Shown piece after piece: positions 17,443-19,425 of a stretch of 60,241 bases of DNA (position 1 is the first letter of the stretch; every line of letters begins with the position of its first letter). Below the pieces are notes generated by a model. The model did no database searches. It was given only the letters and a program-made list of their open reading frames with translations, and had not been told where the DNA came from. This DNA is from an uncultured Candidatus Saccharibacteria bacterium (lineage in GTDB: Bacteria; Patescibacteriota; Doudnabacteria; UBA920). Position numbers and translations under genes: made by a program. Where the stretch lies: NCBI GenBank assembly GCA_964642585.1, contig CAZXPB010000002.1, positions 1-60,241 on the forward strand, read 5' to 3'.

Positions 17443-19425
17443 TTATTTTTTGTATGTTCCTTTGATAATTTCAAAACCTAAAGTATCTTTTTCCTTAAGT
17501 TGCATTTCAGCAACAGTTTCAAACTCAATTTCTGATTCCTTTGCCAAACTTTCTAGTAAATCTTTATTGCCCAAGTCTTCAGAAAACCCTAGTAGTATTT
17601 CCCCATTCACTTTTAAAAGTTCTCTCGCTTCTTTTAAAAACTTACGAGTTGCTCGATAACCTGGGTCAAATAGCTGCATCTCATGCAAATTAATTTTTAC
17701 ACCAGGGTCTAAATAACCAAAAGGTAACGCCCAAAAAATAGTATCAAATTTCACACCCTTCGGGATTCCATCAAATACATCGCCTTCCACTACTATTATT
17801 CTGTGGTTTAATCCATTTTTATCTATGTTTAACTTAGTTGTTTCGACAGCAAAGGGATTAATATCAGTAGCTACAACTTTTAGATATGGGTTTGATCTCG
17901 CCACTAAGCAACTAATAACACCAGTACCACATCCGACTTCACAAAAACTTTCTTTGCCATTTAAATATTCTTCAAGATAAGTTGAAAACCATTTTGTAGA
18001 CGGAAATGGCTCAGGATTAAATACTGCAGGATGAACTACGAACTCACAATCTTCAATTTTCACTGTAATCCAATCCGAAATCTGGTTTTGCTGTAGAAAT
18101 GTCCTAGATTGTTCAACCCCAGCTTCATTCGGATCGTCAAACCTAAGTAGTTGATTTAAATAAATTTTAGTTTTACCTATATCTATTTCTCCATTTGTCT
18201 TTAACTTAGTTTCTGCATCAATTGAAAAATTGATTTTATAATGTCTACGAAGCTCAAAATAGGTATCTAAATCATCAGGTCCAAATCCACCAAAAATTGC
18301 GATATCATTTAATCCATACTCTATCAAAGAATCAATCTTTTTCATCAAACTCTCTTTTGACTCTCTAATACCGTTCCCCTTGCTATTATCTAATAATAAA
18401 AAGGCTTTTTGATTTTGAATTAGTGTTCTAAAATTTTTATCGTTTACTAAATCAAAATTCTCATCGCAAAGAGGAATATCTGCCAAGAAATTCTTGCAAG
18501 CATATTCTATGACATTAAAATTATTTATCTCTAAATCGTTTATTTGTATGTATGAAACAAAAGGCAATGCTTTTTTTACTGCTTTCAAGTCAGCCAAAGG
18601 ATCTTTTGATTTTGAGAAAGTGAAATGCAAAATTGGAACAAAATTTTCATAGTATTCACAAGTTTGAAAAATAGAGCGCACTTTTTCTACATAGTTATCA
18701 TCTTCAAACTTAGTATGATCAAAAGATACACCTATACAAATTTTCAATAAAGGGTCACGCTTATTCTCTTTCAGGAAGTCGCCGATAATTTGGACTTGCT
18801 CTGGAGTCTCAGCGTGGAATTGATAGAAATAATAACTTACTTCTTTATTAAAGAAATGCTTGAACTTATCTTTTTTAGCATCAAAATATTTTTGATTAAA
18901 AATATTACTCTTAACCACAATCGGGATACGTTCAGTTACCTTAAAGCCAAGCTTAGCTAATTCAGAAACTTTTGATGGATTATTTGTTATCAAACGAACA
19001 TCTGTAATACCTAAATCATTCAAAGCAATTTTTGCCCATTCATAATTCCGTTCATCTGGCTTATGGCCTAAAATTACATTTGCTTCGAAAGTATCATATC
19101 CCTTTCTTTGTAATTCATAACTTTTTATTTTCTCAAATAAACCAATTCCTCTACCCTCTTGTCTTAAATATACTAACACCCCGTTCCCATCTTTGGATAT
19201 TTTTTTCAGAGATAGATGAAGCTGCTCTCCACAATCACATCTCAAACTTCCAAATGTATCTCCGGTAATACACTCACTATGGATTCTAACCAAAACTGGC
19301 TTAGAAGCCCCCAAATTTTTTGTTCGAAGGACTATAGTTTCTTTACCAAAAGTATCAGCATAAACACGGATAAAAAAATCGCCATAGTCCGTCTCCAGTT
19401 CAGTTTCTATGTAGCGATTTTCCAT
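17443..19425 (-). CDS. Three-domain fusion protein: GTP cyclohydrolase II (RibA-like), a TrpF-like (beta/alpha)8 barrel, and a class I SAM methyltransferase
   Basis: 660 aa. The N-terminus has [34 protein letters not shown] and RLITNNPSK. The middle has [28 protein letters not shown] and FSIDAETKL. The C-terminus has [21 protein letters not shown] and FWALPFGY. Confidence 0.75.
   Translation of the reverse strand: [660 protein letters not shown]

Follow-up and report, generated by a model that had tools for sequence, protein, structure and literature searches.

Cofactor biosynthesis is believed to be almost absent from Patescibacteria and many chlamydiae, so what is a large and well conserved GTP-processing enzyme making in such genomes? 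The gene that raises this question lies in a 60,241-nucleotide stretch of DNA (hereafter the window) from an uncultured Candidatus Saccharibacteria bacterium (contig CAZXPB010000002.1 of assembly GCA_964642585.1). On its minus strand, at 17443..19425, a complete open reading frame (ORF) of 660 amino acids plus a stop codon starts with ATG and joins, in one polypeptide, a GTP cyclohydrolase II (GCH II), a barrel that appears to derive from TrpF, and an S-adenosylmethionine (SAM) methyltransferase. The strong conservation of this 660-residue enzyme, and its place among housekeeping genes, suggest that these bacteria make a GTP-derived compound of their own. We infer that the fusion, which draws on a TrpF-derived family not named before, is a dedicated form of the FolE-independent route from GTP with a methyltransferase added. 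No description of the fusion architecture, or of GCH II in bacteria of the Candidate Phyla Radiation, was found in the literature, in agreement with a preliminary description of this DNA that knew of no such pathway; a precedent does exist for the first two steps, in the chlamydial RibA and TrpF bypass (PMC4161248).

Three domains in one polypeptide

The three-domain ORF is real and its reading as three domains holds. The identical protein was found on 4 other contigs, from independent sequencing runs, with hisS upstream each time, and a word-indexed search returned more than 100 clusters of full-length homologues of ~660 aa, 53-72% identical to the query. Their source names include Parcubacteria, Paceibacterota, Patescibacteria, Chlamydiae/Simkaniaceae, and Flavobacteriaceae and Bacteroidales metagenome-assembled genomes (MAGs), and the database name they carry is 'GTP cyclohydrolase II' only. 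An assembly chimera, raised in the preliminary description as a possible refutation, is ruled out by these four independent contigs and by the number of clusters sharing the architecture. In an alignment of 31 sequences, the mean identity to the query was 67% for GCH II, 62% for the barrel and 56% for the methyltransferase, with 62, 43 and 37 invariant positions respectively. In the full-length AlphaFold model (mean pLDDT 83.5, pTM 0.68), the linker between GCH II and barrel (aa 186-196, 18838..18870, minus strand) is disordered, with pLDDT below 50, and the junction of barrel and methyltransferase is a well ordered helix (residues 434-446).

The N-terminal domain (aa 1-195, 18841..19425, minus strand) is well supported as a bona fide GCH II, with a predicted activity on GTP. 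PF00925 matched residues 5-194 (4.8e-57, 192.6 bits for a cut-off of 23.3), and both TIGR00505 (228.4 bits, cut-off 205.85) and NF001591 (235 bits, cut-off 148) were matched above threshold. The sequence of E. coli RibA (PDB 2bz0) was matched at 1.7e-49, and Foldseek gave TM scores of 0.85-0.90 with the RibA structures 2bz0 and 4rl4 (rmsd 2.2 Å, 44% identity). Cysteines C52, C63 and C65 correspond to C54, C65 and C67 of E. coli RibA, Tyr103 to Y105 and Arg126 to R128; all are invariant across the 31 homologues, and so is the TNNPSK loop (TNNPxK) in the alignment with E. coli RibA. We take these residues, from the RibA literature, to be the zinc ligands and the catalytic Tyr and Arg. The Tyr separates GCH II from the formamidopyrimidine-forming GCH III. 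Since the catalytic residues of RibA are present, this Tyr included, the expected product is 2,5-diamino-6-ribosylamino-4(3H)-pyrimidinone 5'-phosphate. The preliminary assignment of residues ~1-195 to GCH II, made by eye, is therefore borne out by profiles above their cut-offs and by the catalytic residues.

The C-terminal domain (aa 451-660, 17446..18075, minus strand) had been read as a class I SAM methyltransferase, and a match to PF05175 (MTS) at residues ~455-650 (1.2e-15, 58 bits for a cut-off of 23) confirms it. PRK14968, the archaeal HemK2-like model, was matched at 5.6e-19 with 68 bits, under its cut-off of 162, and the scores of the equivalog models were far under theirs (51.7 against 199 for PrmC, 43.8 against 295 for RsmC, and likewise for RlmG and PrmA). 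Sequence matches in the PDB were 3evz, RlmG, RsmC and HemK, the best being 3evz, an uncharacterised P. furiosus methyltransferase that has SAPPYY at motif IV where the query has ALPFGY. With the full-length model, the nearest Foldseek neighbours were Asc-Orf2 (9l4q, a small-molecule carbamoyl N-methyltransferase) and HemK2/N6AMT1/KMT9, at TM 0.75-0.81, followed by RsmC, RlmG, PrmC and TrmM. By these comparisons, the domain falls in the broad MTS fold family and in none of its characterised subfamilies. Its SAM-binding motifs are invariant (motif I EVGCGTG, the acidic D521, and GDV with D549), and motif IV reads A(L/M)PF in fused and split orthologues, replacing (D/N)PP(Y/F). ALPFGY had been taken for a degenerate NPPY motif typical of exocyclic-amino methylases; the fold family was right, but ALPF lacks the Asp/Asn of amino-methylases, so the motif gives no proof that an exocyclic amine is N-methylated. 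Fusion to metabolic enzymes points to a small molecule as the substrate.

No specific match to an anti-phage defence system was found: the sole PADLOC match was mad2, rejected as a generic SAM-domain match equalled by an unrelated methyltransferase. The barrel gave no match to PADLOC, and a scan of viral contigs found no relatives.

The barrel domain and its relatives

The middle domain (aa 196-450, 18076..18840, minus strand) is a (βα)8 barrel of an unnamed family. Modelled by AlphaFold from an alignment of 24 orthologues, it shows 8 strands alternating with 8 helices (pLDDT 84.6, pTM 0.82). A Foldseek search of the PDB gave 137 matches at E<=0.001, all of them TIM barrels; the top neighbours were triosephosphate isomerases, PdxJ, KDO8P synthase, TrpA and KGPDC, at TM scores of just ~0.5. 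As these matches are generic, the structure establishes a (βα)8 barrel and no specific family. Neither of the two curated libraries compared (Pfam 2025 and NCBIfam 2026) contained a relevant match, the NCBIfam TrpF models included. A profile of the 24 orthologues found nothing significant among PDB sequences, where a dehydrogenase and quinolinate phosphoribosyltransferase were matched at E ~1.7.

A connection to TrpF was obtained through an intermediate family. The barrel is rare: an exhaustive profile search of 1.84 billion representative proteins returned just 105 matches at E<=0.001, comprising full fusions, GCH II-barrel proteins (~430-445 aa) and stand-alone barrels (~235-255 aa), together with more remote proteins of 240-290 aa that also stand alone. 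Some of the shorter matches may be fragments cut at contig ends. PF00697, the phosphoribosylanthranilate isomerase (PRAI/TrpF) model, was found in 43 of the 84 matches scanned with Pfam, at best with 8.5e-12; protein P0174, for example, scored 40.7 bits for a gathering score of 22.7. These intermediate proteins were far below the cut-off of the NCBI TrpF equivalog models, meaning that they are relatives of TrpF and not TrpF itself. With hhalign, the middle domain aligned to the intermediate family with a probability of 99.8% (E 7e-30, 230 columns), and the intermediate family to T. maritima TrpF with 96.5% (E 1e-9, 170 of 189 residues). As controls, E. coli HisA, HisF, TrpA and the IGPS domain of TrpC were compared to the intermediate family, and none exceeded 1.1%. 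The merged profile aligned to T. maritima TrpF with 93.9% (E 1.6e-7). Altogether, these profile comparisons support a TrpF-derived family, through a homology that is remote and transitive, and specific among phosphate-binding barrels.

The merged-profile alignment also indicates which parts of the TrpF active site were kept. In TrpF, Asp126 (T. maritima numbering) is the general acid, and Cys7, on strand beta1, the general base. Asp346 of the query (FLLLDNS), an invariant residue, pairs with Asp126 (PILLDTK), and the phosphate site of strands beta7 and beta8 is matched as well, GGFGPDD pairing with SGGLNPEN and FSIDAE with FAVDVSSG. Thr, Ala or Ser occupies the Cys7 position in the intermediate family. 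Strand beta1 of the query reads YFYQFH, with the invariant His204 at its C-terminal end; F203 and H204 fall in the region that corresponds to Cys7. The invariant residues of the barrel include H204, H267, Q294, N296, D297, D346-N347-S348, K363, G379, S401, D403 and E405. The active sites of TIM barrels sit at the C-terminal ends of the strands, and the invariant residues are enriched there: 16 of the 43 fall inside this 48-residue zone (hypergeometric p = 0.0014), among them H204, N296, D297, D346, N347, S348, S401, D403 and E405.

The preliminary description had placed a TrpF-like domain here from motifs matched by eye. The homology stands, in the remote and transitive form given above, and three of the five motifs were recovered by profile alignment, namely LLLDNSKG with LLDT, the beta7 segment with LSGGLNPEN, and FSIDAE with FAVDVSSG. 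The pairing of YIQIND with vQLHG in the beta4 region was correct to within a few residues. LLKICIG was out of register: it had been equated with KICG of TrpF beta1, and by strand count and alignment it is beta2. By family criteria the barrel would not be classed as TrpF, as it does not match the profile, lacks Cys7 and stands outside a trp context; a search of the window and 51 related loci found no trp genes.

The intermediate stand-alone PRAI-like barrels (240-290 aa) were also looked at in their own loci (L045 7001-7714, L060 2975-3850, L047 7001-7774 and L061 2283-3014). Their contexts are heterogeneous, including phage-like contigs rich in small unannotated ORFs and an archaeal-looking contig (PCNA, RNase J) where the gene stands directly upstream of a BtpA-family gene. 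The contexts examined gave neither a link to GCH II nor a functional clue for this family.

Occurrence, architectures and neighbouring genes

In a pattern-limited scan of 185,579 species-representative genomes, the barrel was present in 33. Their labels are Patescibacteria (Saccharibacteria, Adlerbacteria, Nomurabacteria, Staskawiczbacteria, Parcubacteria, Minisyncoccia, Paceibacterota), Chlamydiota (Parachlamydiales, Chlamydiales, 'Ca. Sacchlamyda'), and, for single MAGs, Flavobacteriaceae, Bdellovibrionales and Gammaproteobacteria. When these and other loci were mapped by domain, the three-domain fusion was found in 22 loci in addition to the window. Two-domain genes, GCH II plus barrel, occur in L002-5, L019 (as a second copy) and L033-L039, and L006-9 have a RibBA gene (3,4-dihydroxy-2-butanone 4-phosphate (DHBP) synthase plus GCH II) whose 3' end is overlapped by a stand-alone barrel. 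Thus, all complete loci of the close subfamily have a barrel that is fused to GCH II or overlaps a GCH II gene. This Rosetta-stone type of linkage argues that barrel and GCH II act in sequence.

The methyltransferase is more variable. Where it is not fused, a separate MTS gene overlaps the two-domain gene (L002-5 and L033) or is adjacent to it (L036). Other two-domain genes adjoin members of an unrelated family of ~235 aa (L019 16480-17190, L034 10727-11425, L037 8745-9428, and L001 7067-7816 under genetic code 25). This family has a DVGGGxG motif and no match in Pfam or NCBIfam; its top eleven profile matches in the PDB are all methyltransferases, mostly natural-product enzymes (E 0.0085-0.5), so that it is probably a new SAM methyltransferase family substituting for the MTS domain. 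A TehB-type methyltransferase comes after the fusion in L011; in L002-5 one is found 3.5 kb downstream. The GCH II-barrel core is accompanied overall by candidate methyltransferases from three or more unrelated families. The replacement of MTS by non-homologous candidates where it is missing suggests that methylation belongs to the pathway. In L006-9, L038 and L039, no methyltransferase was found within the flanks retrieved (±10 kb around the gene).

The chlamydial loci L026-L031 add a Methyltransf_11/UbiE-type methyltransferase, an MTS paralogue and an MHS-type MFS transporter. Motif IV of the paralogue is NHPF, which restores the canonical Asn. Judging from its gene content, this arrangement resembles a small biosynthetic gene cluster. 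The set after the chlamydial fusion is conserved (L026 2218-4271, L027 ~11400-13500, with equivalents in L028, L030 and L031).

The surroundings of the module were searched by tblastn, with E. coli FolE, FolB, FolK, FolP, RibD, RibH, QueD, QueE, TrpF and HisA as probes and under genetic codes 11 and 25. In 737 kb (the window plus the 51 loci), none of the probes gave a match and no folate, riboflavin or queuosine genes were found, apart from two marginal matches, one of them a 67-residue match to RibD in L014; this result is limited to the stretches searched and leaves room for such genes elsewhere in the genomes. For the window, this confirms, at the sensitivity of tblastn, an earlier remark that riboflavin and folate genes were missing. 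Analysis of conserved neighbours in 43 loci yielded no shared partner family beyond the module itself.

Several further observations were made on the architectures. Four proteins, P0130 (L001 5809-7116), P0086, P0105 and P0113 (L025), have Trp at positions that are invariantly Gly in all other sequences. The P0130 gene contains 17 in-frame TGA codons, and its glycines are restored under genetic code 25. This indicates that the module is also present in lineages reading UGA as Gly (Gracilibacteria/Absconditabacteria type), and that the database proteins were mistranslated as code 4. One 'Ca. Nomurabacteria' genome (L019) has two copies of the module 3.5 kb apart, a three-domain fusion and a two-domain GCH II-barrel gene (9434-11398 and 14973-16496), the two-domain protein having an N-terminal extension of ~75 residues and being followed by the ~235-aa family protein. 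Poorly conserved N-terminal extensions of 40-110 residues before GCH II are found elsewhere (L015 205-2517, L017 2113-4422, and chlamydial P0094, P0098, P0111 and P0116). The extended fusions reach 700-770 aa; one was annotated as RibBA by its source, though no DHBP synthase domain was reported for it.

In the source organism, the fusion gene is set in a compact co-directional block of housekeeping genes: ftsA, ftsZ, a DUF202 gene, a YggU-like gene, hisS, the fusion, comEC, a cyclophilin gene and ndk. The gap of 4 nt between the hisS stop and the start of the fusion ORF, already pointed out in the preliminary description, was verified (hisS, 19430-20656, minus strand). This adjacency is peculiar to the source organism, is not conserved, and carries no functional signal. 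Directly downstream, the ComEC homologue (15938-17392, minus strand) has just 484 aa, with DUF4131 and Competence domains and no metallo-beta-lactamase nuclease domain reported. The cyclophilin-type peptidyl-prolyl isomerase (15154-15954, minus strand) has an N-terminal transmembrane segment and a low-complexity linker rich in Ser, Glu and Thr, which suggests an extracytoplasmic, membrane-anchored foldase. Further away, an ORF resembling RelA/SpoT homologues (RSH; 12845-14365, plus strand) encodes 506 aa, shorter than typical long RSH enzymes, with the HD-domain motif HDxxED in its translation; it overlaps by ~30 nt the 3' end of a convergent-looking ORF (11852-12874).

A proposed route from GTP and its alternatives

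The precedent for the first two domains comes from Chlamydia, a phylum in which folE was lost. There, biochemical work showed that GCH II and TrpF turn GTP into 7,8-dihydroneopterin monophosphate by way of the diaminopyrimidine (Adams et al. 2014, mBio, PMC4161248). Given the GCH II product ('compound V'), the purified chlamydial TrpF forms 7,8-dihydroneopterin monophosphate, and together with RibA it replaces FolE and FolQ, whereas E. coli TrpF fails to complement folE (PMC4161248).

By analogy, three steps can be proposed for the fusion. In the first, the N-terminal GCH II would open the imidazole ring of GTP, releasing formate and PPi, and yield 2,5-diamino-6-ribosylamino-4(3H)-pyrimidinone 5'-phosphate; the chemistry of this step is well supported. 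In the second, the barrel would bind the ribosyl-5'-phosphate through its beta7/beta8 site and catalyse opening of the ribosyl ring and an Amadori rearrangement, with Asp346 as general acid, the counterpart of TrpF Asp126, and a different base, possibly His204 or His267, in place of Cys7. The 2'-ketone formed would finally condense with the 5-amino group to give 7,8-dihydroneopterin 3'-phosphate. This step is suggested by the linkage to GCH II, by descent from TrpF with the acid and the phosphate site, and by the chlamydial TrpF precedent. In the third step, the C-terminal methyltransferase would methylate the pterin product or the intermediate preceding it. This last proposal is the least certain of the three, its basis being the fusion itself and the fact that candidate methyltransferases lacking homology to one another were recruited convergently. 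The core unit would then be GCH II plus barrel, and methylation a frequent tailoring step, with the enzyme responsible differing from lineage to lineage.

That the barrel acts on the GCH II product at all is very probable. We lean slightly towards the Amadori, pterin-forming reaction as what it does there. A self-contained enzyme carrying out all three steps, from GTP to a methylated compound of pterin type, is proposed tentatively. Still more tentative is the broadest version, a new TrpF-descended enzyme family dedicated to the GCH II product, which would allow a single polypeptide to turn GTP into a previously unknown methylated pterin or pterin-like metabolite in ultra-small episymbionts and environmental chlamydiae, organisms without other cofactor biosynthesis. 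The preliminary description had GTP channelled through the three domains to a modified pyrimidine. The sequential action is strongly supported by the linkage and by the repeated recruitment of methyltransferases, but the end product should be revised: ring closure of the Amadori 2'-ketone onto the 5-amino group leads one to expect a pterin instead of a pyrimidine.

Several results weigh against this pathway. The isolated barrel had no Pfam match, even at E<=10, and TrpF was missing from the best 50 of the 137 Foldseek matches, which were generic TIM barrels instead. Compared directly to E. coli and T. maritima TrpF by hhalign, the middle domain gave E values of 0.02-0.05, above the controls yet not significant. 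TrpF's general base, Cys7, is not conserved, and its loss means that the chemistry of the barrel may have changed. The barrel is moreover ~60 residues longer than TrpF (~260 against ~200) and has many extra invariant polar residues; together with the loss of Cys7, the gained invariant His, Asn, Asp and Lys make a different chemistry conceivable. Motif IV of the methyltransferase is without the Asp/Asn that positions an amino-group nucleophile. FolB, FolK, FolP and QueD were not found in the 737 kb, giving no evident use of a pterin nearby. Finally, we know of no folate-type cofactor in which a class I methyltransferase has placed a SAM-derived methyl group on the pterin.

The main alternative builds on the altered active site. 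In it, the barrel uses the GCH II product by N-glycosidic cleavage, or by an aldol or lyase reaction, with no Amadori step, and the end product is a non-pterin heterocycle such as a methylated aminopyrimidine. Such a compound would be near to the modified pyrimidine first suggested, or to an exported antimetabolite like toxoflavin. The lost Cys7 and the extra invariants (H204, H267, Q294, N296, D297, K363, D403 and E405) agree with this alternative, as do the generic structural matches of the barrel, the two further methyltransferases and the MFS transporter that give chlamydial loci the look of a small natural-product cluster, and the absence of pterin-using genes from the window and loci by tblastn. 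The equivalent of Asp126 and the phosphate site are nevertheless retained, and these are the features needed for TrpF-type chemistry. A toxoflavin pathway requires a RibD-like deaminase/reductase, and none was found by tblastn in any locus, the marginal match in L014 aside. Furthermore, the Amadori route to a pterin is the one conversion of the GCH II product that has been documented experimentally for a TrpF-type barrel (PMC4161248). We therefore regard this alternative as unlikely, although it is the best placed of those considered.

A second alternative keeps the pterin and dispenses with the tailoring: the GCH II-barrel core would be a bypass of FolE and FolQ serving ordinary folate, queuosine or another pterin, and the methyltransferase would act on protein or RNA, or be regulatory. 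It is a little more doubtful still. Patescibacteria are generally thought to be without folate synthesis, and folB, folK and folP were not found by tblastn in the 52 sequence stretches searched. Although the fold of the methyltransferase is closest to protein and RNA N-methyltransferases (HemK2, RsmC, RlmG), its scores are far under the equivalog cut-offs of all of them. The RibBA plus barrel loci L006-9 and the two-domain genes of L038-39, with no methyltransferase nearby, speak for a core working alone, but in most loci a methyltransferase is fused or adjacent, and non-homologous candidates stand in where the MTS type is missing. In its favour, such a bypass is proven in Chlamydia, a phylum without folE (PMC4161248).

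A last alternative, an ordinary riboflavin-pathway RibA with two unrelated or decaying domains, or an artefact of assembly or annotation, has only the database name 'GTP cyclohydrolase II' for it and is effectively refuted already by the conservation data, since the architecture is shared by contigs of independent origin and by over 100 clusters, the three domains are comparably conserved with intact motifs, split versions keep the parts as overlapping genes, and ribD and ribH were not detected by tblastn in the window or related loci.

If the barrel performs the Amadori step as we propose, the RibA plus TrpF bypass of GTP cyclohydrolase I becomes a dedicated and horizontally distributed pathway and not a chlamydial curiosity. 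The fusion would be the first natural Rosetta stone confirming that the FolE-independent pterin route is a selected one, as opposed to chlamydial moonlighting. It would add an enzyme family that has no model in Pfam 2025 or NCBIfam 2026, and hundreds of database entries labelled just 'GTP cyclohydrolase II' would need correcting. Since methyltransferases were recruited repeatedly and convergently, the product is predicted to be a methylated pterin or a related heterocycle. It might serve as a cofactor, as a folate-type precursor or as an exported metabolite. In the broadest version, this compound would be a cofactor or host-interaction molecule spanning several lineages and spread horizontally, with the UGA=Gly Patescibacteria among its makers.

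Among known systems, the toxoflavin-type pathway consists of the GCH II ToxB, the RibD-like ToxE and the N-methyltransferase ToxA. The fusion shares with it the coupling of GCH II to SAM-dependent methylation of a GTP-derived heterocycle, and some related loci likewise have several methyltransferases and a transporter. The differences are that these loci are without RibD-like, ToxC and ToxD genes, that a TrpF-type barrel is present instead, and that the methyltransferase is of another family. The GCH II domain is close to E. coli RibA (2bz0), with 44% identity, a TM score of 0.90 and all the catalytic and zinc residues; it differs in standing outside a riboflavin gene set, as the N-terminal part of a three-domain protein. 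The methyltransferase has in common with HemK2 (N6AMT1, Mtq2), RsmC/RlmG and Asc-Orf2 a small Rossmann fold, an N-terminal substrate-binding extension and intact SAM motifs, whereas motif IV is A-L-P-F and not (D/N)-P-P-(Y/F), N-H-P-F being found in the chlamydial paralogue, and the scores are under the equivalog cut-offs.

As for TrpF itself (PF00697; PDB 1nsj/1lbm, 1pii), the barrel resembles it in its (βα)8 fold, in the general-acid Asp of the beta6 LLD motif, in the GG of beta7 and in the S/G phosphate site of beta8. In contrast to TrpF, it has ~260 residues where TrpF has ~200, gives no direct profile match, has beta1 remodelled to YFYQFH with Cys7 replaced, carries further invariant residues (His, Gln, Asn, Asp and Lys), and occurs without trp genes in the window or the 51 loci. 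The closest system is the chlamydial RibA plus TrpF bypass (PMC4161248). Its enzymes are separate and moonlighting, RibBA also serving riboflavin and TrpF keeping its PRA (phosphoribosylanthranilate) isomerase activity, and its product is received by a folBKP cluster of a kind not seen near the loci studied here. In the fusion, the barrel is of a distinct, unnamed family, without the TrpF profile match or Cys7, and comes with a methyltransferase. The two systems nevertheless have the same first enzyme, followed by a (βα)8 barrel of homologous type with the same proposed chemistry, and some hosts of the fusion, the environmental Chlamydiota, belong to the very phylum of the bypass; what is split over separate enzymes in Chlamydia is joined in one polypeptide in the fusion.

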